Source: Elusimicrobiota bacterium (GTDB taxonomy: Bacteria > Elusimicrobiota > Elusimicrobia > UBA1565 > UBA9628). From it: DNA of 64,000 nt. Where the stretch lies: assembly GCA_016234805.1 (NCBI GenBank), contig JACRNU010000019.1, forward strand, positions 562-64,561, in the 5' to 3' direction. The position numbers and the translations under genes were made by a program. Shown here one piece after another: positions 23,573-63,932 of this stretch; position 1 is the first letter of the stretch, and each line of letters opens with the position of its first letter. The notes below the pieces were generated by a model. The model saw only the letters and a program-made list of their open reading frames with translations, did no database searches and had not been told where the DNA came from.

Positions 23573-23920
23573 ATGGCATTCAGCAAGGCAAAGGGAGACC
23601 CGGAGAGCCTCAAGGGCAGGACCATCACGCCGAGCAAGCTCGTAGGTTACCAGAAAGGCTCGGTCGTCAGCCGCACCATCGTGGAGCGGCCCACCGGCAC
23701 GGTCACGCTCTTCGCCTTCGACAAGGGCGAGGGCTTGAGCGAGCACACGGCCCCTTTCGACGCGCTGGTGCAGGTCCTCGACGGCGAAGCCGAGGTCCGC
23801 GTCTCGGGCAAGCCTCACCGGGTCAGGGCCGGCGAGGCCATCATCATGCCCGCGGGAAAGCCCCACAGCCTGAGGGCCGTGGAGCGCTTCAAGATGGAAC
23901 TCGTTATGATCCGTTCGTAG
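23573..23920 (+). CDS. Cupin domain protein
   Basis: 115-aa cupin beta-barrel (GEGLSEHTAPFDALVQVLDGEAEVRV...GEAIIMPAGKPHSL). Confidence 0.7.
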   Translation: MAFSKAKGDPESLKGRTITPSKLVGYQKGSVVSRTIVERPTGTVTLFAFDKGEGLSEHTAPFDALVQVLDGEAEVRVSGKPHRVRAGEAIIMPAGKPHSLRAVERFKMELVMIRS

Positions 23921-23924
23921 GCTG

Positions 23925-25310
23925 TCACACCGCGGTCTTGCGCCGGAACAGGGCCGCGGCCCGGGCGCGCAGGATCCTGGGGTCGAACGGCTTGGCCAGA
24001 TAGTCATCAGCTCCGCACTGCAGGGCCTGCACCTGCGCCTCGGCCTCGCCGACCGCGGTCACCACGATGACCGGAACGGTTGCCGTGGCCGGCGCAGCGC
24101 GCAAGCGCTTGAGCACGGCAAAGCCGTCCATCCCGGGCATCATGAGGTCCAGCAGCACGAGGTCCGGCGGGTCGGCCCACGCGGCCGACAACGCCTCCTC
24201 ACCCGATGGGGCCTCGGAGAGAGCGTACCCGTCCGCGGCAAGGCTTGCGGCCATGAGGTTGCGGTTGTCCGGGTTGTCGTCCACGATCAGCACCTTCGCC
24301 CCGGTCGCACGGCTTGCCGGCCGGACAGTCAACGGAACGTCCATCCCCATCGGATCATCCACTGGAACCGGCTCGGGGCTTTGGAGGCGAGCGGGGATGT
24401 CGTCCCTCGCGCTCATGCCCACGACCGAGGCCGCTTCATCCACCTTCGTATCCCCGCGGAGGAGGTGGTACTTGGCGTCCTCCTCGAGCGTCCTCAGCCA
24501 TCCTGCCCGGCGCGCCATCTCCGCGAAAGCCGCGGTCTCGGTCTCGCCGGAGAGCCGCCTTCTCACCGCGGGCTCGGAAAGGTCGAGTATCTCGGCCAGG
24601 GCCAGCCTGCCCCGCAGTCCCGACCCGGAGCAGGACTCGCACCCGGAGCCGCCGCACGCGGCGCACCGCCTCCTCACGAGCCGCTGGGAAACGACTCCTA
24701 TCAGGGCCGAGGCGATCCTGAAGCGCTCCACGCCCATGTCCAGCAATCGGTCGATGGTGGCTGTCGCGTCGTTGGTGTGGAGCGTGGAAAGCACGAGGTG
24801 TCCGGTCATGGCCGCCTGGAACGCGATGTCCGCGGTCTCGCGGTCCCTGATCTCCCCCACGAGGATGATGTCCGGGTCCTGCCTGAGGACCGAGCGCAGG
24901 ATTGAGGCGAAGCCCATGCCGGCCTTGTCGCTCACCTGGATCTGGTTGACGCCGGCCATGCGGTACTCGACCGGGTCCTCCACGGTCGTGATGTTGACCC
25001 CGTCCGCGCGCAGGCCGGCAAGGAGGGAATAGAGCGTCGTGGTCTTGCCTGAGCCTGTCGGCCCGGTCACCAGCAGAAGCCCCTGCGGGATGGAAGAGAG
25101 CCGTTCCATGGTCTTCAAGAGGTCCGGCCGGAACCCCAAGGAAGCCAGAGGCACCTCGGCCTGCCTGGGATCGAGGATGCGCAGGACCGCCTTTTCTCCG
25201 AAGGAGGTCGGCACTGTGGAGACCCGGAGCCCCAGTTCCCGCTCCCCGACCCGCAGTTTGGCGCGGCCGTCCTGCGGCCTCCTGCGGTCCGCGATGTCAA
25301 GACGCGCCAT
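23925..25310 (-). CDS. GspE/PilB-family secretion ATPase core fused to a C-terminal response-regulator receiver domain (N-terminally truncated or split)
   Basis: SRIKIMARLDIADRRRPQDGR, Walker A GPTGSGKTTTL, Asp/His boxes, tetracysteine CAACGGSGCESCSGSG, then a REC domain (KVLIVDDNP...LDLMMPGMDG...DDYLAKPF). The frame is coherent only from ~25345 downward. Confidence 0.7.
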   Translation of the reverse strand: MARLDIADRRRPQDGRAKLRVGERELGLRVSTVPTSFGEKAVLRILDPRQAEVPLASLGFRPDLLKTMERLSSIPQGLLLVTGPTGSGKTTTLYSLLAGLRADGVNITTVEDPVEYRMAGVNQIQVSDKAGMGFASILRSVLRQDPDIILVGEIRDRETADIAFQAAMTGHLVLSTLHTNDATATIDRLLDMGVERFRIASALIGVVSQRLVRRRCAACGGSGCESCSGSGLRGRLALAEILDLSEPAVRRRLSGETETAAFAEMARRAGWLRTLEEDAKYHLLRGDTKVDEAASVVGMSARDDIPARLQSPEPVPVDDPMGMDVPLTVRPASRATGAKVLIVDDNPDNRNLMAASLAADGYALSEAPSGEEALSAAWADPPDLVLLDLMMPGMDGFAVLKRLRAAPATATVPVIVVTAVGEAEAQVQALQCGADDYLAKPFDPRILRARAAALFRRKTAV

Positions 25311-25866
25311 GATCTTGATGCGCGAGACGAGCGCCCCGGCCGCGACATGCCGGGGCAGAGTCGCCCTCGTCGCTTGAAAGGCACTCGACAGCCTCGCTCT
25401 CCGGCAGGCTGCGCAGGAGGTCGTAGACCACGGCATCAGGGGAGTAAAGGGCGTCGAGCAGGTCCCTGACCTGGCGCGACAAAGCGTAGCGGGCCACTGG
25501 TTCCCTGCCGCTGACCGCGCAAACCTCGGCCAGAGCCTCGGCGTCCAAGGGGTTCGACATGGCCACGACGATGCGGCCATCCTCCAAGCCCAGGGGAGCC
25601 AGACCCCTGCGCCGGCACACTGGCTCCGGGAGCAGGCCTTTCACCAGGGGGTCAGGGGCGCCGGCGGACGGCTCGGCCAGGCGCAGGCGGTACTGGTCCC
25701 AGAGCGCGTCGCCGAAGGCTTGGCGGCTGAGGGCCCCTGTCGAGAACGCCTCAGCCACCGGGTCGGGCGCCCCGCGCAGTCTTTCCAGGGCCTCGGCTGA
25801 GACCAACCCCCGCTTTTCCGCAAGCCTCAGGAACCACTCGTCACGGCCGGCTGTCAGCTTTCCCAT
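25297..25866 (-). CDS. T2SSE_N / MshEN-type domain protein (GspE N-terminal domain, standalone or split from the ATPase)
   Basis: LRLAEKRGLVSAEALERL...GRIVVAMSNPLDAEALAEV...REPVARYALSRQVRDLLDALY matches the GspE N1 domain. GGGAGG Shine-Dalgarno before ATG 25866. The stop overlaps the ATG of the ATPase ORF in the sequence ATGGCGCGTCTTGA. Confidence 0.6.
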   Translation of the reverse strand: MGKLTAGRDEWFLRLAEKRGLVSAEALERLRGAPDPVAEAFSTGALSRQAFGDALWDQYRLRLAEPSAGAPDPLVKGLLPEPVCRRRGLAPLGLEDGRIVVAMSNPLDAEALAEVCAVSGREPVARYALSRQVRDLLDALYSPDAVVYDLLRSLPESEAVECLSSDEGDSAPACRGRGARLAHQDHGAS

Positions 25867-26242
25867 GGAGGCTTCCTCCCGCGATGGCCTTGCGCACCTC
25901 GGCCACCAGCCTGGCCGGGGCGCAGGGCTTGGCGATGACGCCGTCGCACCCGGCCCGGGCCGCCTTCTCCGCGTCCCCGGCAAGGGCATAAGCCGTGAAG
26001 GCCAGCACCGGGACGCCTCCCAAGAGCGGGTTCGCCTTGAGGCGCCGCGTGGTCTCCCAACCGTCGAGCACGGGCATGCCCATGTCCATCAGCACCAAGT
26101 CAGGCGGCTCGGCCTCGGCCAGGGCCAGGGCCGCGGCTCCGTCTTCGGCCAAGACGACCCTGAAGCCGGCTGCCTTCAAGGCCGCGGCCGCCACGGCGCG
26201 ATTGTCCGCATCGTCGTCCGCGACCAGCACCAGAGGATTCAT
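25841..26242 (-). CDS. CheY-like single-domain response regulator
   Basis: 133-aa REC domain (VLVADDDADNR...LVLMDMGMPVLDGW...KPCAP). Confidence 0.8.
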   Translation of the reverse strand: MNPLVLVADDDADNRAVAAAALKAAGFRVVLAEDGAAALALAEAEPPDLVLMDMGMPVLDGWETTRRLKANPLLGGVPVLAFTAYALAGDAEKAARAGCDGVIAKPCAPARLVAEVRKAIAGGSLHGKADSRP

Positions 26243-28137
26243 CGTCGGACCTCCGCGAGCGCCGTGAGCTTGCGCTTGAGCCCGGCAAGGATCTCCGCCA
26301 CGCTGAGCGCGCCCTTGCGCACCACTGCCGCGTCATTGGTCTGCAGGCGGACAGCCTCTTCGGGGGAGACCTCTCGGCCCGTCAGGATCACGACCGGGAC
26401 CTTGCGGCTGCCGGGTTCCCGGCCCATCTCCTCGGCCACGGCAAGACCGCTCATGTCAGGCAGGCCCATGTCCAGGAACATGGCGTCCGGCTTCTCCTGC
26501 CTCCAGCAGGCGAGCGCCTCGGCGCCCGTCCCGGCGGACACCACGGAAAAGCCTTCGCTGGTGAGACCGAAAGTCATCAGGGAGACGATATCGGGATCAT
26601 CGTCGACCACGAGCACCTTGCGGCCCAGGAGCCGCGACTGCGCGCGCAGCTTGGCCAGCAGGCCGGCCCGGTCAAAAGGCTTGACGAGGTAGTCGGAGAC
26701 CCCCAGAGAGAACCCCAGGGCCTGATTCTCGATGATCGAAAGGATGAACACCGGGATGGGCCGCAGGACCGGGTCGGCCTTGAGCTCTCTGAGCACGGAC
26801 CAGCCGTCGCGCCGCGGCATGAGGATGTCGAGCGTGATGATCTCCGGCATCAGGCGCCGGGCCAGGGCAAGCCCCTCGTCGGCGCACAAGGCCCCCCTGA
26901 ACTCGAACTCCGTGGCGGAGAGGCTGTCCCGCAGGAGCCGGAGCACCTCGGGGTCGTCGTCGATGCTGAGGATGACCTTGCGGCCCGGCCGGACCTCCTC
27001 GGTTCCCCCGCCCGCGATCGCCGGGACATCAGCCAGGGGACGGGAAGCTCCGGGCAGGAGCACCTTGAAGACCGAGCCCCCGCCCACCCGGCTCTCAACG
27101 CTGATCGAGCCCTGCAGGAGCTCCGAGAGCTTCTTCGTGATGGAAAGACCCAGCCCGGTGCCCCCCTGCTTGCGGACCGAAGAGCCGTCCACCTGGGTGA
27201 ACTGCTCGAAGACGAAGTCCAGGTGCTCGGCCGCGATGCCGCAGCCCGTGTCCTGGACCCAAAACTCGATCCTTCCTTCGGAACCGGCCCGCGCTCCCAG
27301 GGTGACCGTGCCCCGGTCCGTGAACTTGATGGCGTTGCCCGCGAGGTTGACCAGTATCTGCTTGACCTTGGTGCGGTCCGAACGCAGCGGGATGCCCGCC
27401 CCGGCCTCCCAGGCCATGGCGAGCCCCTTGGCCTTGGCCAGGGACTGCATCGTGTCCACGGTCTCCCTCAGGAGGTCCGCCACGTCGAAATCCTCCAGGA
27501 AGACCTGCATCATGCCGGCGTTGAGCTTGGAATAGTCCAAGACGTTGTTGATGAGCGCCAGCAGGTTCTTCGAGTTGACCAGGACGCGCTCGAGCGGCTC
27601 TCTCTGGACCTCGGTCACTGCTCCGTAGGTGCCGTCCAGGAGCAGTGAGGTGTAGCCCATGAGGGCGTTCATGGGCGTGCGAAGCTCGTGGCTCATGTTG
27701 GCCAGGAACTCGGACTTGACCCGGTCTGCTTCCTCGAGCTCGTTGACCTTGGCTCTCAGCCGCTTGCGCTCGACCGCCCGGGCGGCCAGGTCCGCGAGGT
27801 GGTCGAGCGAGTACGGCTTGGCCACATAATCGTACGCCCCGGCCTTGAGCGCGGCGATGGCGGTCTCCACCGTGGCGTTGCCCGTGACCATGATGACCTC
27901 GAGCTTGGGCCGGAGGTCCTTGAGCGCCTTGAGCACTTCGACGCCGTCCATGCCGGGCAGGCCGATGTCGCAGATGGCGGCGTCGAACTCCTCCCGGAGC
28001 GCAAGGCCGACGGCTTCCTCGCCCGAACCAGCCGCGGCCACGCGAAAGCCCTCCAGGGGCAAGGCCCGGCAGAGCAGGTTCCTCACCGAAGGCTCGTCGT
28101 CGATGACCAGCACGTATCCGCCCCGAACGTGGTCCAT
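26239..28137 (-). CDS. Hybrid sensor histidine kinase (REC-HisKA-HATPase_c-REC-REC)
   Basis: N-terminal REC, H-box SHELRTPMNALMGY, N/G1/G2 boxes, then two C-terminal REC domains (KVILSIDDDPE..., KVLVVDDDPD...). Confidence 0.85.
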   Translation of the reverse strand: MDHVRGGYVLVIDDEPSVRNLLCRALPLEGFRVAAAGSGEEAVGLALREEFDAAICDIGLPGMDGVEVLKALKDLRPKLEVIMVTGNATVETAIAALKAGAYDYVAKPYSLDHLADLAARAVERKRLRAKVNELEEADRVKSEFLANMSHELRTPMNALMGYTSLLLDGTYGAVTEVQREPLERVLVNSKNLLALINNVLDYSKLNAGMMQVFLEDFDVADLLRETVDTMQSLAKAKGLAMAWEAGAGIPLRSDRTKVKQILVNLAGNAIKFTDRGTVTLGARAGSEGRIEFWVQDTGCGIAAEHLDFVFEQFTQVDGSSVRKQGGTGLGLSITKKLSELLQGSISVESRVGGGSVFKVLLPGASRPLADVPAIAGGGTEEVRPGRKVILSIDDDPEVLRLLRDSLSATEFEFRGALCADEGLALARRLMPEIITLDILMPRRDGWSVLRELKADPVLRPIPVFILSIIENQALGFSLGVSDYLVKPFDRAGLLAKLRAQSRLLGRKVLVVDDDPDIVSLMTFGLTSEGFSVVSAGTGAEALACWRQEKPDAMFLDMGLPDMSGLAVAEEMGREPGSRKVPVVILTGREVSPEEAVRLQTNDAAVVRKGALSVAEILAGLKRKLTALAEVRR

Positions 28138-28200
28138 ACCATAGTATGGCGCGGCCGGCTGAAGCAGGGCTTGCGGAGAGCTTAAGAAGGGATTAACTGG

Positions 28201-28893
28201 TCAGTCTTCGAACTTATAGCCGTGGCCGAGGACGGCCACGATGCGCTTGGCCAGGCCGGGCCCGAGCTTCTTGCGCAGGTGGCAGACATGGACCTCGACC
28301 GTGCCCGGGTCGTTGTAATCGGCCGGGTCGTAGCCCCATACGGTCTCGAGCAGGTAGTTGATGGTCAGGGCCTTGCCGGGCCTGCTCAGCAGGGTCGCAA
28401 GCAGATCGAACTCCTTGCGGGTCAGGGAGACCTTCTTCCCCCGGACGCTGACGGTGCGGCCCGCCGGGTCGAGCTCGACGCCGTGCTTCTTGAGCCGCTC
28501 GTCGGAAACGACCACGACCTTGTAGCGCCTCAGGACCGCCTCGATGCGCGCCTTCAAGACCGCCATGGAGAAGGGCTTGGCCACGTAGTCGTCCGCCCCG
28601 CCCGCGAACCCGGCGAGGACATGCTGCTCGTCGATGAGGGCCCCGCTCATGATGATGATCGGGACGGTCTGGGTCGCGGCCTCCTGCTTGAGCACCCGGC
28701 AGACCGCGTGCCCGTCCAGGCCCGGCATCTGCGCGTCCACCAGGATGATGTCCGGCTTGGACTCGCGCGCCAGCATGAGGGCCTCGGACCCGCTGTCGGA
28801 CACCACGCAGACGAACCCGTTCGCGGACAGGTAGCGCTTGAGCGCTCCCAGCACCGAACGGTCATCATCAACGATGAGTATCTTTGGCTTCAT
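28201..28893 (-). CDS. OmpR-family DNA-binding response regulator
   Basis: REC (MKPKILIVDDD...) plus a winged-helix trans_reg_C domain (LTRKEFDLLATLL...VWGYD...VEVHVCHLRKKL). Confidence 0.85.
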   Translation of the reverse strand: MKPKILIVDDDRSVLGALKRYLSANGFVCVVSDSGSEALMLARESKPDIILVDAQMPGLDGHAVCRVLKQEAATQTVPIIIMSGALIDEQHVLAGFAGGADDYVAKPFSMAVLKARIEAVLRRYKVVVVSDERLKKHGVELDPAGRTVSVRGKKVSLTRKEFDLLATLLSRPGKALTINYLLETVWGYDPADYNDPGTVEVHVCHLRKKLGPGLAKRIVAVLGHGYKFED

Positions 28894-28946
28894 GGGCGCT
28901 CCCTGCCCAGAGTATGCCAAATCGCGGGCCGGGCGCATAGGCCCCG

Positions 28947-29888
28947 TCAATGCACGTCGTCGCGCCTGCGGTCGAAGGCGAAGCGGCTCAAGCGGCCGTC
29001 ATTCCGGGCTTTGCAGTACGACTTCATCTCAGCCGCCAGGGACACTGCCCGGGCATAGTGGTCCATGAGCCGCTGTCGGGAGCTCACGATGCCGATGGAA
29101 AGGGTCAAGAGCGACAGGCGCTGTATCCTCCCCTGCCGGTCCGCGGTCTCGACCCAGCCGCGGGCCAGGTCCACGGCCTCGTAGAACGTGACCGCTTTCT
29201 GGTCGAAGACCGTGACGATCCTCTGGCTGGCCGAAGCCGCATCCTCGGGCCTGGTCAGGAACACGAAGTCGTCGCCCCCGACGTGGCCGAGGAACGCGTC
29301 CTGCAAGGGGCGCAAGGCGGCCTCGATGACGCCTGCGGTGGCCCTGATGACCTCGTCTCCCCGGGCGAATCCGTAGTGGTCGTTGTACGCCTTGAAGTGG
29401 TCGAGGTCCGCGTAGTGAAGCGCGAAGTGCCGGTCCTCCGCGATGCGGCGGGTGACCTCGGCCTCGATCGAGGGCGTCCCCGGCAGGCGGGTCAGGGGGC
29501 TCGCGGCCAGGTCGGTCCTGCTTCGGCGGAGCGCGCTCAGCACATGGGCGCGCAGGTCGTCGGGTTGGAAGGGCTTGGCGATGAAGTCATCGGCCCCGGA
29601 CTCAAGGCCCTCGACCTCGGTCCCTGGCTGGGCGCAGCCCGTGAGCATGATGACCGGGATGGTGCGGGTGCGCGCTCCGGTGCGCAGTTCCTGAAGCACC
29701 TTCCACCCGTCCATGCGGGGCATGGAGAGGTCCAGGATGATGAGGTCCGGGCTCGCGGTCCTGGCCATCTCCAGGGCCGCGGCGCCGTCCTCGGCGCCGA
29801 CCACCTCGTACGCGGGCGCGACCAGCGCCCTGGACACGAGCTTGCGCACCGCCTCCTCGTCGTCAGCCACCAATATCTTCTGGGACAT
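28947..29888 (-). CDS. Response regulator with GGDEF output domain (motif is GGDDF)
   Basis: REC (MSQKILVADDEE...LDLSMPRMDGW) followed by a GGDEF fold (HYADLDHFKAYNDHYGFARGDEV...HVGGDDFVFL). Confidence 0.8.
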   Translation of the reverse strand: MSQKILVADDEEAVRKLVSRALVAPAYEVVGAEDGAAALEMARTASPDLIILDLSMPRMDGWKVLQELRTGARTRTIPVIMLTGCAQPGTEVEGLESGADDFIAKPFQPDDLRAHVLSALRRSRTDLAASPLTRLPGTPSIEAEVTRRIAEDRHFALHYADLDHFKAYNDHYGFARGDEVIRATAGVIEAALRPLQDAFLGHVGGDDFVFLTRPEDAASASQRIVTVFDQKAVTFYEAVDLARGWVETADRQGRIQRLSLLTLSIGIVSSRQRLMDHYARAVSLAAEMKSYCKARNDGRLSRFAFDRRRDDVH

Positions 29889-30108
29889 GACCGCCTCCTT
29901 GGCTTTCCCGCGCCGATTCCAGCAGGCCCTGCAGGCGCAGGCCGGACCGGTATGCCGCGTCCAGGGCCTGGACCGCCCGAGCATCCCCTGCCGGAAGCTT
30001 GCGGAGCAGCTCGATGTTCCCCAGCACGCAGCCCAGGACATTGGCCATGGCGTGGTACCTCTCCATGCCTTCAGCATACCTTTCCGGCCTTGCCGGACGC
30101 TGAACCAC
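29863..30108 (-). CDS. Small ORF resembling a histidine-kinase DHp (H-box) fragment
   Basis: ERYHAMANVLGCVLGNIELL resembles an HK phosphoacceptor helix. It starts 19 nt from the IS4 left inverted repeat and overlaps the start of the GGDEF gene. It may be a gene remnant. Confidence 0.25.
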   Translation of the reverse strand: MVQRPARPERYAEGMERYHAMANVLGCVLGNIELLRKLPAGDARAVQALDAAYRSGLRLQGLLESARESQGGGHVPEDIGG

Positions 30109-30126
30109 GGCTTAACTGCGCCTTAA

Positions 30127-31523
30127 GGCAATGCCGGTCACTTAAGCCGGGTGCCCGTCGTTGCGGGCATAGTTGCTCATCTTGATCTTGACGTGCCTTG
30201 GGTAGCGGCGTTCAGACCGTCTCGGGGGCAAAACAAGCTCCCGCATCTCCACGCGCATGTCGCGGATCACGCCCAATAGAACAAGTCCCGGATGAGCCTC
30301 AGCGAGCCCCGAAAGCTGATCCGGCGTGGCGGCACCCCGCAGTCTGCGGCAACAGCCTCCATTTCGTGACGCACCAAGTTGTAGGCGACGGCCAAGCCCC
30401 AAAGCTCCTGGGCGACACGCTCCGGCGTCTTCGACCGGATCGCCTCCATGCGTTCCAGCGCGTGCGTCTTGATCTCGTCGTAGCCAAGCTCCAATTCCCA
30501 TCGCTCATGGTAGAGCTCCGCAATCTCGGCTGTCGGATACTTCTCCGCGTCCAAGAGAGAGGTCAACAGCACCTGCGGCCGAAACCCCTTCCTGCGGTAG
30601 CGGACTACGCGCGCCAGGAACTTCTCCGGCAGATCAGGATGCTTGGCCCTCAGATTGCGAGGAAACTCAATCTCCACAAGGGCGTCCCCGCGTCCCAGCG
30701 ACTTCACTGCACGCCACTTCAACCCTTTTCTGCCACGCGCCAGCCAGTGCCGCTCCTCTCCGCCAGCGCGGATTTGGTGCCACAGATGGTAGTTGATGTA
30801 ATAGCGGTCCAGGACGACCAACGAATACGACGGCAAACGTTCCAACAGCAGGGTTGCCAGACCGATCTCCCCCGGCCCTGTCCGGCATCCGGCGAAGTTG
30901 AAGCCCAAGAGCAAGTGGCTGCGCAGAACCATCAGTCCGACCGCGCGGACTTGGGGATACCCTGCGGAGCGACGACTCGATCCCGGAAGCCCGAACGCCG
31001 TCCGGTTCTCCTTGGTGTCGGGCACCCGTATTCCCGTCCCATCCGCACCCAAAACCATCAGCCCGTGCCAACGGTGACGCTCCGCCGAGGCCAGCGCCCA
31101 GTGCCGTGCTGTCGTCTCGAACAGTTCCCGCACCGGCTCCGGTCCCACACGGTCTCGGGCCGGGGGGATAGCCCCTTGGCTTACGCCCTGGCGCTTGCCG
31201 TCGGGACCGGGCAAGACCAAGTCCAGCCGCCGCACGATCTCGGCAATGGGTCGGTCGCGATACAACGCCATCCCCACCACCAGCCACATCACCTGCTCCA
31301 CCGCCAACTTGCGGTTGCGAACCGTCGCGACGCCGTGCATCGTCAACGACGATTTTACCCACTCAACATCAACCTGCGATTTCAGCCCCTCGAACGACGC
31401 TGGAAGAGTGCCATCGCTCAGGGAAATGAGCGACGATGCCAGTCCCATGAGTCCCCCTTCTCGGCGCTGGGGGATATTATGTCATTTCCCGTCGGAGGAC
31501 GGGCTTAAGTGACCGGCATTGCC
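30127..31523 (-). mobile_element. IS4-family insertion sequence (~1.4 kb) with 22-bp perfect terminal inverted repeats
   Basis: IRL 30127-30148 GGCAATGCCGGTCACTTAAGCC equals the reverse complement of IRR 31502-31523. A single DDE transposase ORF lies inside. Confidence 0.8.
30267..31448 (-). CDS. IS4-family DDE transposase
   Basis: 393 aa with IS4 YREK-region signature (AEIAELYHERWELELGYDEIK) and DDE residues. Confidence 0.85.
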   Translation of the reverse strand: MGLASSLISLSDGTLPASFEGLKSQVDVEWVKSSLTMHGVATVRNRKLAVEQVMWLVVGMALYRDRPIAEIVRRLDLVLPGPDGKRQGVSQGAIPPARDRVGPEPVRELFETTARHWALASAERHRWHGLMVLGADGTGIRVPDTKENRTAFGLPGSSRRSAGYPQVRAVGLMVLRSHLLLGFNFAGCRTGPGEIGLATLLLERLPSYSLVVLDRYYINYHLWHQIRAGGEERHWLARGRKGLKWRAVKSLGRGDALVEIEFPRNLRAKHPDLPEKFLARVVRYRRKGFRPQVLLTSLLDAEKYPTAEIAELYHERWELELGYDEIKTHALERMEAIRSKTPERVAQELWGLAVAYNLVRHEMEAVAADCGVPPRRISFRGSLRLIRDLFYWA

Positions 31524-32342
31524 CCCCTCTTCGTCGAAGATGAGGTAATCGAAGGTGACGCTGGCCTTGCCGATGTCCGAGATGCAGGTGCGCACCGAGA
31601 GCAGGTCGTCGTAGCGGCTCGCGGCCAGATAGCGGCACCCGGCCTCCACCACGGGCAGGAAGAGCTTGCGCTGGACCTCGAGGTCGCGGTAGCGCACCCC
31701 GAGCGACCTCAGGAGTTCAACCCTGCCCAGCTCGAAGAACTTGAAGTAGTTGGCGTAGTAGATGACCCCCATCTTGTCCGTATCGGCGTAGGTGACGCGC
31801 ACGTTGAACTCGTGGAAGCGCACCCGGGACGCCTTGGGATGGGGCCGGGCCTCGGCCGGAGGGGACGCCGCGCGTTCGGCCTTGGACGGCGGCAGCGGCG
31901 AAGGCTGCCGTGCCGGCGGCGGAGGAGGGACCGGGAAGAACGGCTCCTCAGGCGCGCTCCCCACCGAGAGCCCGAGCACCGAGTTCAGGATGGAGATGAA
32001 CTGGTTGAGGCCCATGGGCTTGCGCACGAAGAAAGTGTTGGGGCCAGGGCGGATCCGGGAACGGATCTCGTCCGCGGAGACCACGCTCGAGAAGATGATG
32101 GGGATCTCCGCCGTGTCCGGGGAGCCGCGCAGCCTCTCGTAGACCGTGTGCCCCCCGCCTCCGGGCATCTGGTAGTCCAGGATGATGGCGTCGGGCTTGG
32201 TCTGATGCGCCTGTAGGACCCCTTGGAGGCCGTCGAAAGCCACGGAGACCCGGTACCCCACGACCTCCAAACCATCCTTGAGCGGGGCGACCAGGTTCTG
32301 GTCGTCATCCACGATGAGGATCTTCTTCGACATCCTCTCCAA
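31482..32342 (-). CDS. Response-regulator receiver fused to a YbgC/4HBT-type hotdog acyl-CoA thioesterase; 3' end interrupted by IS4
   Basis: REC (KKILIVDDDQNL...ILDYQMPGGGG), Pro-rich linker, hotdog domain (VRVTYADTDKMGVIYYANYFKFFELGRVELL). The last 14 codons are encoded by the IS4 right end. Confidence 0.65.
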   Translation of the reverse strand: MERMSKKILIVDDDQNLVAPLKDGLEVVGYRVSVAFDGLQGVLQAHQTKPDAIILDYQMPGGGGHTVYERLRGSPDTAEIPIIFSSVVSADEIRSRIRPGPNTFFVRKPMGLNQFISILNSVLGLSVGSAPEEPFFPVPPPPPARQPSPLPPSKAERAASPPAEARPHPKASRVRFHEFNVRVTYADTDKMGVIYYANYFKFFELGRVELLRSLGVRYRDLEVQRKLFLPVVEAGCRYLAASRYDDLLSVRTCISDIGKASVTFDYLIFDEEGGNAGHLSPSSDGK

Positions 32343-36064: not shown

Positions 36065-37432
36065 TCATCCAGCGGCGACCGCGGCCGAATAGCCGAGCCC
36101 CTCGACAGCCTCCAGGAGGCGCTTGATATCGACCTTGCCTCCGCGCACCACGGCCTTGCCGGCGGCGAGGTCCACCTCGGCCGACTCCACTCCCTCGCAC
36201 TCCGAGAGGGCCCTGCGTACGCTCGCGGTGCAATGGCCGCAGGTCATGCCCGTGACCTTCAGGATGACCGAGTCCCGGCTGTCACCGCCATCCCCGAAGG
36301 ACAGCCGGGACGCTCGGCCTCCGGCCTTGACCGCGTCCCGATCCGCCGATGTCCCTCCTGAGTTTTCCGGCATCACCTTGAGCCTCCGCAGCCACCCGGG
36401 GACAACGGCCGCGCCCAGGACCGCCAGGAGCGCCACGCCGCTGAGCGTCTCCCAGGAGCCGCTCCCGGAGTGATGCAGGTGCTCGGCCATGGACACGCGC
36501 AGGTCCGGGAGGACCATGTCCAGCGCCCACCCGGACAGAAGAGAGACGACCGCGATCGCGGCAAGGTAGACCCAGGCGGTCCTTTTCCCCATGGTCTTCC
36601 AGACCATGGCGACCGTGGCCGCGTTCGTCGCCGGGCCGGTCATCAGGAAGACGAACGCCGCTCCCGGGGACACGCCCTTGGCGACCAGGGCCGCGGCGAT
36701 GGGCACCGAGGCGGTCGCGCAGACATAGGTCGGTATGCCGATGGCCATCATGACCAGCATGCTCGCGAAGTCCGCCCAGCCCGGTCCCAGCGCGTCCGAG
36801 AGAGGGCCCAAAAGCTTGTGGAAGAAGCGGGGAGGGAGCAAGGCCGAGATGAGCCCCGCGATCGCCAGCCCGACCAGCATGGCCGAGCCGATGTCCCTCG
36901 GCAGGGCGACGAAGCCGTAGTGGAGGGCGTCCCGGACTCCGCCCCGCATCCACGAGGAAGAGGCGCCGGCCTTCCTTCCCGCGGGAGCAGGCGGCCGTTT
37001 CCCGTCCCCCTGCTTGTCTTCCAGCAGGTCCACGGCCATCCCCCCCGCGATGCCGCTGATAAAAGCCGCCAGCACGCGGAATACGGTGAACACCGGGCCG
37101 AGGAAGCTGTAGGTCACGAGGATGCTGTCCACGCCGGTCTGGGGAGTGGAGATGAGGAAGGATATCGTCGCCCCCCTGCTGGCGCCATGGCTCCTTAGGG
37201 AAGCAGCCACCGGTATGACCCCGCACGAGCACAGCGGAAGGGGCACGCCGAACAGCGAGGCCTTGACCACGGCCCACCACGGCCGCTGCGCCCCGCCAAG
37301 GTGCCTCTCCACCGCATCGGGCGAGACGAGCACGGAGAGGACCCCGGCCACCGCGAACCCGAAGAGGAGGTAGGGCGCCATCAGCGAGAGGGAGGACCAG
37401 AAGCCCCAAGCGACGCCGCCCAAAGCCTCCAT
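36065..37432 (-). CDS. DUF318/SO_0444-type permease with C-terminal heavy-metal-associated (HMA) domain
   Basis: Polytopic permease with paired Cys (PLCSCGVIPV) and a C-terminal GMTCGHC ferredoxin-like HMA domain. Confidence 0.7.
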   Translation of the reverse strand: MEALGGVAWGFWSSLSLMAPYLLFGFAVAGVLSVLVSPDAVERHLGGAQRPWWAVVKASLFGVPLPLCSCGVIPVAASLRSHGASRGATISFLISTPQTGVDSILVTYSFLGPVFTVFRVLAAFISGIAGGMAVDLLEDKQGDGKRPPAPAGRKAGASSSWMRGGVRDALHYGFVALPRDIGSAMLVGLAIAGLISALLPPRFFHKLLGPLSDALGPGWADFASMLVMMAIGIPTYVCATASVPIAAALVAKGVSPGAAFVFLMTGPATNAATVAMVWKTMGKRTAWVYLAAIAVVSLLSGWALDMVLPDLRVSMAEHLHHSGSGSWETLSGVALLAVLGAAVVPGWLRRLKVMPENSGGTSADRDAVKAGGRASRLSFGDGGDSRDSVILKVTGMTCGHCTASVRRALSECEGVESAEVDLAAGKAVVRGGKVDIKRLLEAVEGLGYSAAVAAG

Positions 37433-37482
37433 CAGAGTCCCTCTGCCACGCAGAGCCGTTCCTTGGCCGCGGCGGTCCGCAT

Positions 37483-37755
37483 TCAGTCCTCCCAACTCCC
37501 GAGCAGGTTCTTGATCTCCCCCATCTTGGTCTCGATCTGGGCCTTATCCCGGGACTGGATGGCGGTCGTCACGCAGGTGCGCAGATGGCCGTCGAGGATC
37601 TCGATGCCGACCCGCTTCAAGGCCGCGCGGACCGCCTTGATCTGCTGGGCGATGTCGATGCAGTAGCGGCCCTCATCCACCATCTTCCTGATGCCCCGGA
37701 CCTGCCCCTCGATGCGGTTGAGCCTTTTTACGCGATCCCGATCCCCGTGTTCCAT
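37483..37755 (-). CDS. csoR: CsoR/RcnR-family metal-sensing transcriptional repressor
   Basis: RLNRIEGQVRGIRKMVDEGRYCIDIAQQIKAVRAAL...HLRTC, with conserved metal ligands Cys/His/Cys. Confidence 0.8.
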   Translation of the reverse strand: MEHGDRDRVKRLNRIEGQVRGIRKMVDEGRYCIDIAQQIKAVRAALKRVGIEILDGHLRTCVTTAIQSRDKAQIETKMGEIKNLLGSWED

Positions 37756-37788
37756 GAGTTGTCCTCTGCTCCCCTCGCGGCCGCCTCA

Positions 37789-37810
37789 TATACTATACCA
37801 TAGTATAGTA
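37789..37810. promoter_or_regulatory. AT-rich inverted repeat ATACTATAC-CATA-GTATAGTAT upstream of csoR (candidate operator/-10 region)
   Basis: 9-bp perfect arms around a 4-nt centre, 34-55 nt upstream of the csoR start codon. Confidence 0.4.
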
Positions 37811-37827
37811 TGTTAGTCAAGGCCCCA

Positions 37828-38448
37828 TCATGGCTTGAACCCCTCATAGAAGCAGACGACCCTCATGGTACGCCCTTCAGGACGCACATCCCGCAGACCG
37901 ACCCGGCGAAGCAAGTCCAGGAGGTCCTCCTCGGTCGCCAGATTTTCGAGAAGGGAGAGCGCCTCCAGCAGCCAACGGACAGGGCCTCCTCCCGAGACCA
38001 CGAGGTCCGCCAGCACGAGCCTGCCGCCGGGCTTGAGCACGCGGCCGCATTCCCGAAGCGCGGCCTCCCGCTCCTCGGCCGGCACATGGTGGAAGGCCAG
38101 GGTGGACACCACCACGTCGAAACAGGCGTCCTCGAACGGCAAGCGGCCCATGGAAGCCAGCTCAAGCCGCGGCCGAAGCCCCTTGCGGCCCAGCTTGTCC
38201 GAGGCGATGGCCAGGGCCAGGGCATCGGGGTCCGCTCCGACCGCGTCCAGCCCGGGATGGGCCTCCAACAGGACCTCCAGCAACGCCGCGGTGCCGCAGC
38301 CCGCGTCCAGGAGGCGCTCCCGGCCCGTCAAGCCCAAGCGCCGCAGGATGTCCTTGCGAAAGCCCCGGCCGAGCCCTATCGCCGAACAGAGGGCGTCATA
38401 GAACGGAGTCAGCGCGTGCAGATGCGCCGGCGGGACATGACCGCTCAT
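37828..38448 (-). CDS. Class I SAM-dependent methyltransferase
   Basis: Motif I LLDAGCGTAAL, then a post-I acidic residue and motif II/III spacing. Confidence 0.75.
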   Translation of the reverse strand: MSGHVPPAHLHALTPFYDALCSAIGLGRGFRKDILRRLGLTGRERLLDAGCGTAALLEVLLEAHPGLDAVGADPDALALAIASDKLGRKGLRPRLELASMGRLPFEDACFDVVVSTLAFHHVPAEEREAALRECGRVLKPGGRLVLADLVVSGGGPVRWLLEALSLLENLATEEDLLDLLRRVGLRDVRPEGRTMRVVCFYEGFKP

Positions 38449-38466
38449 GGCCGGAGCCGTGGGGCC

Positions 38467-38895
38467 TTATTGTTTCTCCAGGTTCATCCCGCATTTTGGG
38501 CACCGGCCATCCTTGGTCTTGGGACCCTTGTAACAGCCCATGGAGCAGACATAGACGTCTTCCTTCGTCTGCCCCTGCGCCGCCTGCGCCTTCTTCTGGC
38601 CGGGCGCGGCCTTCTGGCCGCAATGCGCGCAGCCGGCTTCCTTCATGCCCATGTGCGCTGCCGCGACCTGTATCATCTTGACCGCGCCGGGATCCTTGGC
38701 CGTGATGTTGATGACGACCCCGTCCTTGGTGTTGGTCACCTTGACCTCCGCCCCCTCGACATGCGCCGGGCACGTCATCGCATGGCCCCCGCCATGCGCC
38801 TCATGCCCCGGCGCCGCCGACGCTCCCCCCATGCGGGCGAAGAACAGCGACACCGCTCCTGCCGCGAACAGGGCTGCGACGAGCTTCTTGTTCAT
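38467..38895 (-). CDS. Secreted His-rich protein with C-terminal heavy-metal-binding domain (YxCxM...CPKCGM type)
   Basis: Signal peptide MNKKLVAALFAAGAVSL, His-rich stretch, C-terminal YVCSMGCYKGPKTKDGRCPKCGMNL. GGAGG upstream. Confidence 0.6.
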   Translation of the reverse strand: MNKKLVAALFAAGAVSLFFARMGGASAAPGHEAHGGGHAMTCPAHVEGAEVKVTNTKDGVVINITAKDPGAVKMIQVAAAHMGMKEAGCAHCGQKAAPGQKKAQAAQGQTKEDVYVCSMGCYKGPKTKDGRCPKCGMNLEKQ

Positions 38896-39075
38896 GTGTT
38901 CATGACCTCCCTGTCGGTTCCAGGCGTTCCGGGCGGCAAAGCCGCCCAGAGTCCGAGGCCGACCTTCCGCACTCTGCGCACACCCAGCGCGCCTTGCGGG
39001 CAACGGCGATGAGCTCGGCCAGACCGGGCTTCCTGCCCATGAGTTCGCACATGTGCTCGATCTTCTCCTGCTTCT

Positions 39076-39648
39076 TCATTTCCCAACCTCCTGTTCAGGC
39101 TCTCTCTTCGAATCCAGGTCGCCTTCTCCCGTCCCAAGCAGTTTCTTCGCCATGCCGATCCAGGCCCGGACCAAGGCGGCCTCGTCCGGCCTGAGCGCCG
39201 AATCCCAGTGCATGACGCGGTAGTACCAGGGCGGCATGGACCCGTCTTGGACCACCTCATCCAAGGCCTCGAGGTTCTCCCGGAGCGAGCCGTGGCCGCC
39301 GAACGGAAAGCCCGTCCGCATGTCCAGATGTTTCTTGGCGGTGCGCATGTCGTAGAGCATGAGGTGCTTGGCGCCCGGGACGGCGAAATACCACGGCAAA
39401 GGCCTGCCGCTCCCATGGCAGTCGAAGCACTTCTTGAGGAAGATGGGCTTGACCTGGCGCAGATAGGCCGCGTTGATCCGAGCCATGGCCCCTTCGCGGT
39501 CCGCGGCCGGGGAGCCGATCCCCGTCGGCGCGGTCGGAACCGAGACTCCGTCTCCGGGATGTTTCACACCCTTGTGCGCCGCCGCATAAGACGCCAGAAG
39601 GACGGCGCACAACGACAGAAGGGAAGCCAGCCCCGGTCTCTTGGTCAT
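39076..39648 (-). CDS. Secreted haem-binding-motif (CxxCH) protein
   Basis: Signal peptide MTKRPGLASLLSLCAVLLA and single CFDCH motif. ATGA overlap with the cusA stop. Confidence 0.5.
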   Translation of the reverse strand: MTKRPGLASLLSLCAVLLASYAAAHKGVKHPGDGVSVPTAPTGIGSPAADREGAMARINAAYLRQVKPIFLKKCFDCHGSGRPLPWYFAVPGAKHLMLYDMRTAKKHLDMRTGFPFGGHGSLRENLEALDEVVQDGSMPPWYYRVMHWDSALRPDEAALVRAWIGMAKKLLGTGEGDLDSKREPEQEVGK

Positions 39649-42600
39649 CGTCTCAGCTCCGGGATGGGGAGCTTCGAAACATCCACCGTGCCGTGCTTCA
39701 TCTCGTGATGCCACTTCCACAGGTAGAATACCGGCGGGTACACCAGGAGCTCGAGGAGGAAGCTGCTGAAGAGCCCCCCGATCATGGGAGCCGCGATGCG
39801 CTTCATGAGGTCCGCGCCCGTGCCCAGGGACCACATGATGGGGATAAGGCCCATGAAGGCGCAGGCGACGGTCATCATCTTGGGCCGCACCCTCTTGACC
39901 GCGCCGTGGAGCACCGCCTCCTCGAGGTCCGCCTCCGTGGACATGCGTCCCCGGCGGACCATGTCGTAGTAGGCCATGTCGAGGTAGAGGAGCATGAAGA
40001 CCCCGGTCTCGGCGTCAAGGCCCATCAAGGCGATCATGCCCACCCAGACCGCAATGGAGATGTTGTAATCGAGCCCCCAGAGGAACCAGATCGCTCCGAT
40101 GAGCGAGAACGGCACGGCCAGCATCACGATCCCGGTCTTGGCCCAGGACCCGGTGTTGAGGTGGAGCAGGAAGACGATGATGAAGAGCGTGAGCGGGATG
40201 ACGACCTTGAGCCGCTCCTTGACCCTGGCCATGTTCTCGTATTGGCCGCTCCACGCCAGGGAGTAGCCCGTGGGAAGGCGCAGGGCTTTTGCCGCCTTGT
40301 CCTTGGCCTCCTTGACATACCCTCCGATGTCGCGTCCGGCCACATCCACGTAGACGTAGCCGGCCAGCATGCCGTTCTCATTGCGGATCATGGCGGGCCC
40401 GAGCTTCAAGCCGATGTCGGCCAGCTGGGCCAGGGGGACCTGTGCCCCTCCCATGGTGGGCACGAGCACGCACTTGAGCTTGTCCAGGTCGTCGCGGAAC
40501 TCCCGGCCGTAGCGCACGCTGACCGTATAGCGCTCGCGGCCCTCCACCGTGGTGGTGATCGGCTCGCCTCCGATGGCGGTCATGATCACCATCTGCGCTT
40601 CCTTGATGGTCAAGCCGTAGCGGGCCAGCGCCTCGCGCTTGAGCGTGAAGTCCACGAAGTACCCGCCGGCGGTGCGCTCGGCGTAGACGCTCCGGGTCCC
40701 GGGCACTCCCTTCAGGATGCCTTCCAGGTCCGTGCCGATCCTCTCGATCTCGGCAAGATCCGAGCCGAAGACCTTGATGCCGATGGGGGTACGCACCCCG
40801 GTGCTCAGCATGTCGATGCGGGCCTTGATGGGCATGGTCCAGGCGTTCGTGACCCCGGGGAAGCGCATCTTGGAGTCGATCTCCGCGACCAGCTCCTCCC
40901 AGGTGATGCGGTCGTACCAGATGTGCCGCAGGAGACCTTGCAGGGGTCCCGGCGCCCATGAGGAATACCAACGGGGCTTGCGCCGCCATTCCTCATGGGG
41001 CTTCAAGACCACGGTGGTCTCCATCATGGAGAAGGGTGCCGGGTCCGTGGAGGTCTCAGCCCTGCCTGCCTTGCCGAACACCCGCTCGACCTCGGGGAAG
41101 CTCTTCAGGACGCGGTCCTGGGACTCAAGCAGGCTGCGGGCCTCGGTGACCGAGAGGCCGGGCAGGGTCGTGGGCATGTAGAGGATGGTCCCCTCGTTCA
41201 AGGGCGGCATGAACTCAGAGCCCAGGCGCAGGTAGACCGGGATCGTGGTCAGGACCATCAGTCCTGCCGCGGCAATGACCTTGTAGGGATGCCGCAGGAC
41301 GATCCTGCACACAGGCTCGTAGACCCTGAAGAGCAGGCGGCTAACCGGGTGCCGCTCCTCGGGGTAGTACCTGCCGACCGTGACCTGGTTGTAGACCCAG
41401 GCGAGCCACGCAGGCTTGAAGCTCACGAAATCCATGCGCGAGAAGAGCATGCGCACGGCCGGGTCGAAGGTGATGGCCAGAACCGCGGCGATGGCCATGG
41501 CCAGGTTCTTCGTGTAGGCCAGGGGCTTGAAGAGCCGGCCTTCCTGGTCCACCAAAGTGAAGATGGGCATGAATGCCACCGCGATGACCAGGAGAGAGAA
41601 GAAGACCGCGGGACCCACTTCCTGCAGGGCCTTGAGCCTGATCTCGTGGAAGTCCCCCTTCCTCCCGCCCTCGATCCAGAGCTGGAGCTTCTTATACGCG
41701 TTCTCGACCTCCACGATGGCGCCGTCGACCAAGATGCCGATCGAGATGGCGATGCCCGAGATGGACATGATGTTCGCGGTCAACCCCATGAAGTACATGG
41801 GGATGAATACCAGCACCACGGACACCGGGATGGTGATGATGGGGATGATGGCGGTGGGGATGTGCCAGAGGAACACGAGGATGACGAGGCTCACGATCAC
41901 GAGCATGAGCACCAGCTCTTCCTTGAGCGTGGAGATGGCGCGCTCGATGAGGTCGGACCGGTCGTAGGTCGTCACCACCTCCACTCCCTCGGGCAAGGAG
42001 GGACGGATCTCTTCGAGCTTGGCCTTGACCCTGGCGATGACGTTGAGGGCGTTCTCGCCGAAGCGCATGACCACGATGCCGCCGGCCGTGTCTCCCCCGC
42101 CGTCCAGGTCAGCGACCCCGCGCCGGATCTCGGGGCCGAGCGCGACATGGCCGAGGCTCTTGACGAGGATGGGCGTGCCTCCCATGCTCCGCCCGACCAC
42201 GATGTCCTCGATGTCCTGGATGGACTTGGCATAGCCGCGGCCCCGGACCATGTACTCCGTGCCCGCGAATTCGACGAGCCTGCCGCCCACGTCGTTGTTG
42301 CCGTCCCGGATGGCTTCAACGACCTTCATCAGCGGGATGTTGTAGGCCACCAGCGCGTTGGGGTCAAGGCTGACCTGGTACTGCTTCTGGAACCCGCCGA
42401 TGGAGGCGACCTCGGCCACTCCCGGGACGGACTGCAGGTAATAGCGCAGATACCAGTCCTGATAGCTCCGAAGGTCAGCGAGACTGTGGCTGCCGCTCTT
42501 GTCCACCAGGGCGTACTGGAAGACCCAGCCCACGCCCGTGGCGTCAGGACCAAGCTCGGTGCGCACCCCGTCCGGCAGTTGGGGCAGGATCTTGCTCAGG

Positions 42601-42935
42601 TACTCCAGGGTCCGGCTGCGCGCCCAATAGACGTCCGTGCCGTCCTGGAAGATGACATAGACGTAGGAGTACCCGAAGTCCGAGAAGCCCCGGATGGCCT
42701 TGACCTTGGGAGCCCCCAAAAGGGCCGTCACGATGGGATAGGTGACCTGGTCCTCGATCACGTCCGGCGACCGGTCCCACCGCGAATAGATGATGACCTG
42801 GGTGTCCGAAAGGTCCGGGATGGCGTCCAACCGGGAGTTGCGGATGCAGTAGTAAGACGCGGCCAGCGCGCCCGCGGTGAGCACCAGGACGATGAACTTG
42901 TTCCTTGCGGACCACGCGATCAGTTTTTCGATCAT
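39645..42935 (-). CDS. cusA: CusA/CzcA-family heavy-metal efflux RND transporter
   Basis: 1096 aa, 12-TM RND with two large periplasmic loops. N-terminus MIEKLIAWSARNKFIVLVLT is typical of the HME-RND family. Confidence 0.9.
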   Translation of the reverse strand: MIEKLIAWSARNKFIVLVLTAGALAASYYCIRNSRLDAIPDLSDTQVIIYSRWDRSPDVIEDQVTYPIVTALLGAPKVKAIRGFSDFGYSYVYVIFQDGTDVYWARSRTLEYLSKILPQLPDGVRTELGPDATGVGWVFQYALVDKSGSHSLADLRSYQDWYLRYYLQSVPGVAEVASIGGFQKQYQVSLDPNALVAYNIPLMKVVEAIRDGNNDVGGRLVEFAGTEYMVRGRGYAKSIQDIEDIVVGRSMGGTPILVKSLGHVALGPEIRRGVADLDGGGDTAGGIVVMRFGENALNVIARVKAKLEEIRPSLPEGVEVVTTYDRSDLIERAISTLKEELVLMLVIVSLVILVFLWHIPTAIIPIITIPVSVVLVFIPMYFMGLTANIMSISGIAISIGILVDGAIVEVENAYKKLQLWIEGGRKGDFHEIRLKALQEVGPAVFFSLLVIAVAFMPIFTLVDQEGRLFKPLAYTKNLAMAIAAVLAITFDPAVRMLFSRMDFVSFKPAWLAWVYNQVTVGRYYPEERHPVSRLLFRVYEPVCRIVLRHPYKVIAAAGLMVLTTIPVYLRLGSEFMPPLNEGTILYMPTTLPGLSVTEARSLLESQDRVLKSFPEVERVFGKAGRAETSTDPAPFSMMETTVVLKPHEEWRRKPRWYSSWAPGPLQGLLRHIWYDRITWEELVAEIDSKMRFPGVTNAWTMPIKARIDMLSTGVRTPIGIKVFGSDLAEIERIGTDLEGILKGVPGTRSVYAERTAGGYFVDFTLKREALARYGLTIKEAQMVIMTAIGGEPITTTVEGRERYTVSVRYGREFRDDLDKLKCVLVPTMGGAQVPLAQLADIGLKLGPAMIRNENGMLAGYVYVDVAGRDIGGYVKEAKDKAAKALRLPTGYSLAWSGQYENMARVKERLKVVIPLTLFIIVFLLHLNTGSWAKTGIVMLAVPFSLIGAIWFLWGLDYNISIAVWVGMIALMGLDAETGVFMLLYLDMAYYDMVRRGRMSTEADLEEAVLHGAVKRVRPKMMTVACAFMGLIPIMWSLGTGADLMKRIAAPMIGGLFSSFLLELLVYPPVFYLWKWHHEMKHGTVDVSKLPIPELRR

Positions 42936-45549: not shown

Positions 45550-45614
45550 TCCCTCTTTTACCAAATTGTGCAATGCCGCAGGTGCTTTCCGCGCAAAGAG
45601 CTTGGATCCATTCC

Positions 45615-47318: not shown

Positions 47319-47557
47319 CCAGATCTCTCCCCTTTCTGGGGCTTGGATTTCATCTCGTCCCATGATCTTCGTGGCCCTCATGCGTCTCAACCGGGAGGCC
47401 TGCCGCAGTGCCCGTGGATTTCGGGACCGCGGCCTCCTGGCTGACGGCCTTCGCGCGCTCCTTGTGCCCCTTATGGGCTTTGTGTCCGAAGAGCAGCATC
47501 CCCCCGCACATAGCGACCATCATGACTGCCATTGCTGCAATCACCATAGCGCCTCCA

Positions 47558-48103: not shown

Positions 48104-48115
48104 ATCGCCCCCTTT

Positions 48116-48619: not shown

Positions 48620-48719
48620 GACCCGATCCCTCCCTGCTAGGTTCGATCCTGCTGCTTGGAAATGGCGGACTCCGACGACCATTCCCAAGGATTACGAATG
48701 GAGGACTGACGCGGACGCG

Positions 48720-63921: not shown

Positions 63922-63932
63922 GGCTGGGCGCT

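Follow-up and report, generated by a model that had tools for sequence, protein, structure and literature searches.

We analyzed a 64,000-nt stretch of DNA (the window; G+C content ~67%) from an Elusimicrobiota bacterium known from a groundwater-type metagenome-assembled genome (MAG), focusing on a minus-strand region at positions 23925-32342. This region encodes two-component signaling proteins, among them a PilB/GspE-like motor ATPase that carries a receiver (REC) domain of its own. We annotated the long minus-strand open reading frames (ORFs) by a Pfam scan and used NCBIfam models in addition. There were six proteins with a receiver and eight REC domains in total, all on the minus strand, and a check of sequence motifs found the acidic pair, the acceptor Asp, the T/S and the Lys in all eight. 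A cluster of six REC proteins had been described here in an earlier reading made from the letters alone (the sequence-only reading), and Pfam confirmed it along with most of the domains listed, except that the supposed GGDEF motif is actually GGDDF. We consider it probable that the locus is a two-component signaling operon with a broken motor-ATPase output and an upstream gene joined to it by an insertion sequence (IS), and that in intact members of the ATPase family the motor is gated by its receiver.

In the direction of transcription, the region starts with a 3'-truncated gene for a REC-4HBT hotdog protein of the YbgC/FadM thioesterase type (31482-32342; Pfam, NCBIfam and alignment), which is followed by a 1397-bp insertion sequence of the IS4 family (30127-31523), recognized by its inverted repeats, Pfam and the model NF033592. 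The sequence-only reading had counted seven consecutive genes; the IS4 element sits between the first two. A small H-box-like ORF of 61-67 aa and uncertain status (29863-30066), identified from its translation and database matches, precedes the genes for a response regulator with REC and a GGDEF-like domain with the signature GGDDF (28947-29888; Pfam), an OmpR/PhoB-type response regulator with REC and a Trans_reg_C winged helix (28201-28950; Pfam and NCBIfam), a soluble hybrid histidine kinase with the order REC-HisKA-HATPase_c-REC-REC (26239-28137; Pfam and motifs) and a CheY-like single-domain REC protein (25841-26242; Pfam). Last are an MshEN ORF (25297-25866) and a 551-aa ORF with T2SSE and REC domains (23925-25580), both found with Pfam. 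The operon genes overlap or are tightly spaced. In a motif check, the ATPase had intact catalytic motifs and the kinase intact H, N and G boxes.

The MshEN and ATPase reading frames

The MshEN and ATPase ORFs are in different frames and share 284 nt, and the first ~75 residues of the 551-aa ATPase ORF look out of frame. The T2SSE match in the window covers positions 52-368 of the 370 positions in the Pfam profile; in intact fusions it starts at positions 2-5. We compared the window with eleven related loci annotated with Pfam, nine of which have the fusion gene (L001-L007, L170 and L171). Aligned to L001 (MAFFT and blastn), the window has a single gap of 167 nt, with the deletion junction at 25358-25361 (minus strand). 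Nucleotide identity is otherwise 83%, and there is no other frame break. The missing piece amounts to ~55 codons plus 2 nt and is out of frame; relative to L002, in which a DNA alignment also found the segment lost from the window gene, ~186 nt are missing. Past the junction, the frame of the 5' part continues to a stop at 25297.

The 5' part (25361-25866; Pfam and alignment) encodes an N-terminal helical region and MshEN/N1 and is 82% identical to residues 1-175 of the intact homologue P0001. The 3' part (23925-25358; Pfam and motifs), encoding the ATPase core from the middle of the N2 subdomain onward and the C-terminal REC, is likewise 82% identical to P0001. What is lost is the start of the N2 subdomain, where the stretch aligns to Geobacter PilB (5TSG), and 12 columns that are invariant in a 31-member family alignment lie within it. 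The segment is not encoded in any frame elsewhere in the 64-kb window, and for this reason we rejected programmed frameshifting as a way to rescue the 55 missing residues. A complete N2 subdomain and ATPase core in one frame is present in homologues such as P0001 and absent from the window gene.

MshEN, T2SSE and REC were found by Pfam in a single polypeptide in 112 of the 120 best homologues (~650-770 aa, mostly 690-740 aa), and a query with the ATPase-REC part matched more than 100 Elusimicrobiota proteins. NCBI annotates the ATPase half as a 503-aa 'TadA' (MBI5882058.1). The 'TadA' and CheY entries have consecutive accessions, so the record has no protein for the MshEN piece. Because the frames overlap, the T2SSE match starts late, the alignment has one gap and the homologues are single proteins, we conclude that the MshEN ORF and the ATPase-REC ORF are the pseudogene halves of one broken MshEN-T2SSE-REC gene. 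The MshEN ORF, which had been taken for a standalone receptor for cyclic di-GMP (c-di-GMP), is the N-terminal fragment of the same gene. The ATPase does carry its own fused and apparently competent C-terminal REC, as had been proposed, but the ORF assigned to it is only the 3' half. The gene is a pseudogene here and intact in relatives, rather than a pseudogene in all related genomes. The motor output of the source genome is most probably non-functional.

The remainder of the ATPase gene (~640 codons) has no further stops or frameshifts. Its ratio of nonsynonymous to synonymous substitution rates (dN/dS) was 0.15-0.20 against L001, compared to 0.14 for the CheY gene, 0.25 for the kinase gene and 0.24 for the intact L001-L002 pair. 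Because the remaining codons have dN/dS values like those of the neighbors and the intact pair, the lesion is either very recent or an artifact of the assembly or population. We think it unlikely that the ATPase gene is intact in the organism and that the 167-nt gap is a mis-assembly or a minority deletion variant in the MAG consensus. MAG consensus sequences can capture such variants, the rest of the gene is flawless with a normal signature of purifying selection, and the other operon genes are all intact. However, the junction does not fall within a repeat or homopolymer, the alignment shows no obvious microhomology between the two ends of the deletion, the NCBI record retains the truncated form, and there are other real structural changes at the locus (the IS4 element, and the absence of small REC and Tll0287-like genes; see below). 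The instance in the window, a damaged copy of an uncharacterized but widespread gene family, is either ordinary genome decay or an assembly issue.

The receiver-ATPase family and its MshEN domain

The T2SSE domain of the ATPase half (24432-25355; Pfam) contains Walker A (GPTGSGKT, 25041-25064), the Asp box (VEDPVEY, 24963-24983), Walker B (DPDIILVGEIRD, 24843-24878), the His box (TGHLVLSTLHTN, 24771-24806) and a tetracysteine Zn motif of the form CxxC...CxxC (CAACGGSGCESC, 24630-24665). The first four motifs are invariant in the family alignment, as are the Zn-motif cysteines C457, C460, C465 and C468; the Zn motif separates PilB/GspE from PilT. The loop between the two CxxC pairs is four residues long in the subgroup that includes the window protein, P0001 and P0002, and ~25-30 residues long in other members. 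The C-terminal REC (23961-24293; Pfam) has its phospho-acceptor Asp in a motif at 24123-24155. The DD in IVDDNPD, the D in LLDLMMPGMDG, the T in VIVVTA and the K in LAKPF are all in columns that are invariant or nearly so.

The best solved relatives of the ATPase in phmmer searches were PilB, PilF and GspE (E ~1e-103 to 1e-92). Intact P0001 fell under the NCBIfam equivalog cut-offs for both PilB (TIGR02538, 461 vs 676) and GspE (TIGR02533, 493 vs 630). The ATPase belongs to a large family in Elusimicrobiota of assembly-type ATPases that resemble PilB/GspE, are ~700 aa long and carry a C-terminal receiver.

The order MshEN-T2SSE-REC was also found by Pfam in a deltaproteobacterium (L010), an Omnitrophota MAG (L011), and members of the Mycobacteriales (L015), Frankiaceae (L018) and Actinomycetota (L039). 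These five fusions were the T2SSE-REC matches from a scan of genome contigs with the family alignment and generic Walker-type patterns, and they are only 34-39% identical to P0001. There were no Elusimicrobiota among the matches listed in that scan, which were otherwise ordinary PilB/GspE genes from many phyla. A scan of metagenome contigs with P0001 recovered at least three full-length fusions amid generic REC matches to MMPGVDGF. In the Omnitrophota MAG, the fusion gene is followed by a gene for a PAS histidine kinase. A search of the literature for a characterized PilB-REC fusion found none; it returned only trans-acting REC regulators and a brief mention of MshEN with REC.

Pfam detected no pilin, T2SSF platform, PilMNO or secretin gene among the ~57 ORFs of the 64-kb window, and there was no prepilin motif in any of its six frames. 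The sequence-only reading had noted that pilin, secretin and platform genes were not visible nearby, which holds for the window and for its relatives, but this absence alone does not show the non-canonical ATPase function that had been suggested from it. It seems quite unlikely that the intact family has no motor role in pili or secretion and is instead a signaling or phosphate-sink component or the power source of an unrelated process. Such a role would fit with the lack of pilus and secretion genes within 10 kb in nine loci and in the window, with the failure to reach the GspE and PilB equivalog cut-offs, and with the altered, family-specific DEW motif in the N-terminal region (described below). 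However, the family conserves every catalytic motif as well as the Zn motif specific to PilB/GspE, its closest matches of known structure are PilB, PilF and GspE (E ~1e-103), and PilS-type kinases with six transmembrane segments (6TM) recur nearby. In addition, the genes for type IV pili are often scattered around the genome.

In MshE and PilB proteins, c-di-GMP is bound by the MshEN domain through a tandem pair of 24-residue motifs located in the N-terminal helices, each of the form RLGxx(L/V/I)(L/V/I)xxG(L/V/I)(L/V/I)xxxxLxxxLxxQ (Wang et al. 2016, PMC5013675). In the window, the MshEN match (PF05157) scored 55.4 bits against a cut-off of 23.1 and covered residues 100-185 of a 230-aa ORF, which is the C-terminal sub-domain and not the nucleotide-binding helices. 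None of 32 proteins, comprising the window protein and 31 Elusimicrobiota family members, contained the motif in either its strict form or the relaxed form used by the authors. The relaxed motif was found in three of the five control fusions from other phyla (L010, L015 and L018), and a looser pattern devised in the present analysis matched L039 as well. In place of the motif, the Elusimicrobiota family conserves the segment (R/K)xxDEW(L)(L/V)R, with the D and W invariant. A Pfam match to MshEN therefore cannot be read as c-di-GMP binding, as this family shows.

The REC-GGDDF protein has its GGDDF at 29265-29279 and the acceptor Asp of its REC within 29706-29738. The Pfam match to GGDEF is partial (positions 5-114 of 161), and GGDDF in place of GG(D/E)EF is kept in three orthologues, including those in L003 and L004. 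In an alignment with PleD, the Asp/Asn residues that bind metal and guanine were still present. The protein has no canonical RxxD I-site. One enzyme with GGDDF, GSU1937, is active and another protein, PA3258, is inactive (PMC8835794). A cyclic-dinucleotide output of the REC-GGDDF protein is possible.

Because the binding motif is absent from the family and the motif of the neighboring cyclase-like protein is GGDDF, c-di-GMP control through MshEN seems unlikely in the Elusimicrobiota family, and a c-di-GMP receptor site in its ATPase is not evident. The gating by c-di-GMP that had been proposed is thus not supported, with the motif in 0 of 32 proteins and a neighbor whose motif is non-canonical. 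It is very improbable that the locus encodes a separate MshEN receptor for c-di-GMP and a separate, shortened ATPase-REC under dual gating by c-di-GMP and phosphorylation: both ORFs are open, the MshEN of MshE/PilB does bind c-di-GMP (PMC5013675) and there is a GGDEF-like gene in the operon, but in all relatives the two ORFs correspond to adjoining parts of a single gene, the ATPase half starts out of frame without ~55 conserved N2 residues, and the c-di-GMP motif is missing family-wide next to a cyclase-like motif that reads GGDDF.

The actinobacterial fusions in L015 (1828-4284) and L018 (3836-6136) have canonical c-di-GMP motifs and Cys-rich, zinc-ribbon-like inserts before REC, and each is followed by an Mrp/ApbC-type ParA gene. 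These fusions, rather than the Elusimicrobiota family, would fit the earlier idea of dual gating.

The kinase-ATPase module and the IS4 element

The hybrid kinase has its H-box (SHELRTP) at 27673-27693, and Pfam found no sensor, transmembrane or Hpt domain in it; the orthologue in L001 is 82% identical. A kinase with the order REC-HisKA-HATPase-REC is directly upstream of all seven fusions that are 54-82% identical to the window gene (L001-L005, L170 and L171). In five of these seven loci, a CheY-like gene encoding 123-133 aa is located between the kinase and the ATPase. The CheY-like gene of the window overlaps the kinase stop codon (ATGA) and overlaps the ATPase start by 26 nt, with the same 26-nt overlap in L001, and its orthologues in L001-L004 have 51-86% identity. 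The likely true start of the OmpR-type regulator is MKPKIL at 28893, and orthologues in L003 and L004 are 62-79% identical. Orthologues of both the OmpR-type and the REC-GGDDF proteins are encoded within a few kb in L003, L004 and L170, and an OmpR orthologue also in L171; 6TM PilS-type kinases are encoded near the module in L004 and L171. From these comparisons, the conserved core is the hybrid kinase, usually a CheY-like protein, and then the ATPase-REC. The clustering in relatives that had been anticipated holds for this kinase-(CheY)-ATPase core, but not for the whole cluster.

Several other features of these loci were observed. In L004 (CP096137.1, a complete genome), the OmpR-type orthologue (2585-3276) is called as a REC of 156 aa and a Trans_reg_C of 62 aa, with a frame break between the two parts (tblastn), so split signaling genes are not unique to the window. 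Genes for CsgG-like lipoproteins are beside the REC-GGDDF gene in L004 (3377-4237) and L170 (6845-7930), and L170 also has a FlgT_N-like gene. On the other side of the module, L002 has a gene for a 127-aa REC and a Tll0287-like gene between the ATPase gene and a cupin gene (3183-4611), and L003 has an orthologous small REC after the ATPase, 63% identical to that of L002. In the window there are only 12 nt after the ATPase gene (23916-23928), and the small REC and Tll0287-like genes are absent. The window locus either lost these two genes or never gained them.

The small ORF at 29863-30066 is just upstream of the REC-GGDDF gene, with a slight overlap, and contains the H-box-like sequence RYHAMANVLGCVLGNIELL. 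Other assemblies encode proteins of 61-81 aa that match it exactly or at 82-85% identity, and a PilS-like HisKA protein in L004 has an H-box to which it is weakly similar. It could be a DHp-only phosphotransfer element, or merely conserved non-coding sequence. We also considered the stretch from the IS to the REC-GGDDF gene as the remnant of a PilS-like kinase. This produced only the weak H-box match, and the database matches point instead to a small ORF of 61-81 aa.

The IS4 element has perfect 22-nt terminal inverted repeats (30127-30148 and 31502-31523), and its transposase ORF (30267-31448) has Nterm_IS4 and DDE_Tnp_1 domains in Pfam and scored 223.9 bits with NF033592 (cut-off 115). The element lacks a target-site duplication; its flanks, ...GCGCCTTAA and CCCCTCTTC..., have no repeat in common, which fits a deletion or rearrangement associated with the IS. 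The reading frame of the REC-hotdog gene continues into the IS, from which its last 12 codons and stop are derived. By alignment, its product is without the last ~38 residues compared to the 308-312-aa homologues P0122 and P0123, and the hotdog model TIGR00051 matched (79.6 against a cut-off of 68.7) over only positions 2-93 of 117. The missing C terminus was found nowhere in the window; the stretch between the IS and the REC-GGDDF gene was considered as the lost 3' end and rejected, since it encodes the missing residues in no frame.

A sister genome (GCA_016218545.1) has the two sides of the IS on different contigs. Its contig 15 (L008) is collinear with the window from 41167 to 31522, ends exactly at the IS and carries the REC-hotdog gene, along with upstream neighbors encoding an efflux pump, a methyltransferase, a CsoR-like repressor, an ArsP permease, a radical-SAM protein and an S8 peptidase. 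Contig 25 is collinear from 28198 to 23937 and carries the kinase, CheY and ATPase genes. The REC-hotdog proteins are a separate large Elusimicrobiota family (238 matches). Because the gene is on another contig in the sister genome and collinearity ends at the IS, the REC-hotdog gene, counted by the sequence-only reading as a member of the cluster, is instead a truncated gene that was joined to the operon by an IS-associated rearrangement and not an ancestral member of it.

Beyond the locus, the window contains a second transposase gene, of the IS91/Y2 type (62671-63972, minus strand; Y2_Tnp and Zn_Tnp_IS91), for at least two mobile elements on the contig. There is also a region of heavy-metal resistance genes (36065-48691), with a CsoR-like repressor, an ArsP-type permease with an HMA domain, an RND pump (ACR_tran), an HlyD-type adaptor, OEP and several small HMBD proteins. 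This region is collinear with L008, except that a ThiF-rhodanese gene in L008 is absent from the window.

Control of the motor and comparison with known systems

Phosphorylation control of the motor is plausible in the intact family, judging from its domains and gene order. On the minus strand, an intact operon would encode, in order, the small H-box ORF, the REC-GGDDF protein, the OmpR-type regulator, the hybrid kinase, the CheY-like protein and the MshEN-T2SSE-REC ATPase. Because the hybrid kinase has no sensor domain and has an N-terminal REC that could serve as its input, it may relay a phosphoryl signal from upstream kinases. The CheY-like protein and the fused receiver of the ATPase would be its phosphorylation targets, and this receiver, once phosphorylated, could switch the activity of the hexamer, or its docking to a platform encoded elsewhere, similar to those of type IV pili or type II secretion systems (T2SS). 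The OmpR-type and GGDDF regulators would be parallel outputs. In effect, this would be a cis-fused version of the control of PilB in trans by CheY-like proteins.

Several observations weigh against this interpretation. The deletion in the ATPase gene could be an artifact, and the lack of further decay fits an artifact equally well. There is no Hpt domain in the hybrid-kinase system to provide a route for phosphotransfer. The distant paralogues in L006 and L007 (~46% identity) are solitary, without a kinase. Finally, genes for pilins, T2SSF, PilMNO and secretins are not found within 10 kb of the fusion gene at any of the nine loci.

A more far-reaching proposal, which we offer only tentatively, is that the Elusimicrobiota motor is itself a response regulator that replaces control in trans by CheY and c-di-GMP. 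The motor would be phosphorylated by the relay kinase, and the MshEN pocket would have been remodeled around the DEW motif for another ligand or partner. The rest of the machinery would be encoded elsewhere, or the motor would have a role other than in pili, and the copy in the window would be a natural knockout.

The value of the window is mainly corrective, in that an apparent seven-gene cluster contains a split pseudogene, an overlooked insertion sequence and a gene joined by rearrangement. The intact family is a natural "Rosetta-stone" fusion, and it speaks for a direct action of two-component phosphorylation on a motor of the PilB/GspE type. The family is worth biochemical study; the kinase and the ATPase-REC would provide a simple in vitro system for the control of a hexameric secretion ATPase by a receiver.

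The family has the N1, N2 and C-terminal ATPase domains in common with PilB, PilF and GspE (Geobacter PilB, 5TSG; Thermus PilF, 6F8L; Vibrio EpsE, 1P9R), as well as Walker A, the Asp box, Walker B, the His box and the tetracysteine Zn motif. In contrast to these proteins, it has a C-terminal receiver of ~120 residues, and its gene is outside of a pil or gsp operon. The Zn loop of the subgroup with the window protein and P0001 is shortened to CxxCGGSGCxxC, and the window copy is without the start of N2. Compared to Vibrio cholerae MshE (5HTL, PMC5013675), the family has the Pfam MshEN domain and an N-terminal helical region of the same length and position, but both 24-residue motifs are absent from all 32 members, which have (R/K)xxDEW(L)(L/V)R there instead. 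The association of MshEN with REC was already among the domain architectures listed in that study (PMC5013675). For the REC-GGDDF protein, the REC and the GGDEF fold are shared with PleD, WspR and GSU1937; the signature of the PleD/WspR class is GG(D/E)EF, and here it is GGDDF.

The coupling of a phosphorylatable receiver to PilB/PilT, downstream of a histidine kinase, is known from the PATAN-REC proteins PixG, PixH and TaxP1 of Synechocystis (PMC11181946), DrdR of Xanthomonas (PMC13507683) and PilG/PilH of Pseudomonas. Those CheY-like or tandem-REC regulators act in trans, whereas the receiver of the Elusimicrobiota family is covalently fused to the motor, and the kinase beside it is a soluble hybrid of the HisKA type rather than CheA.

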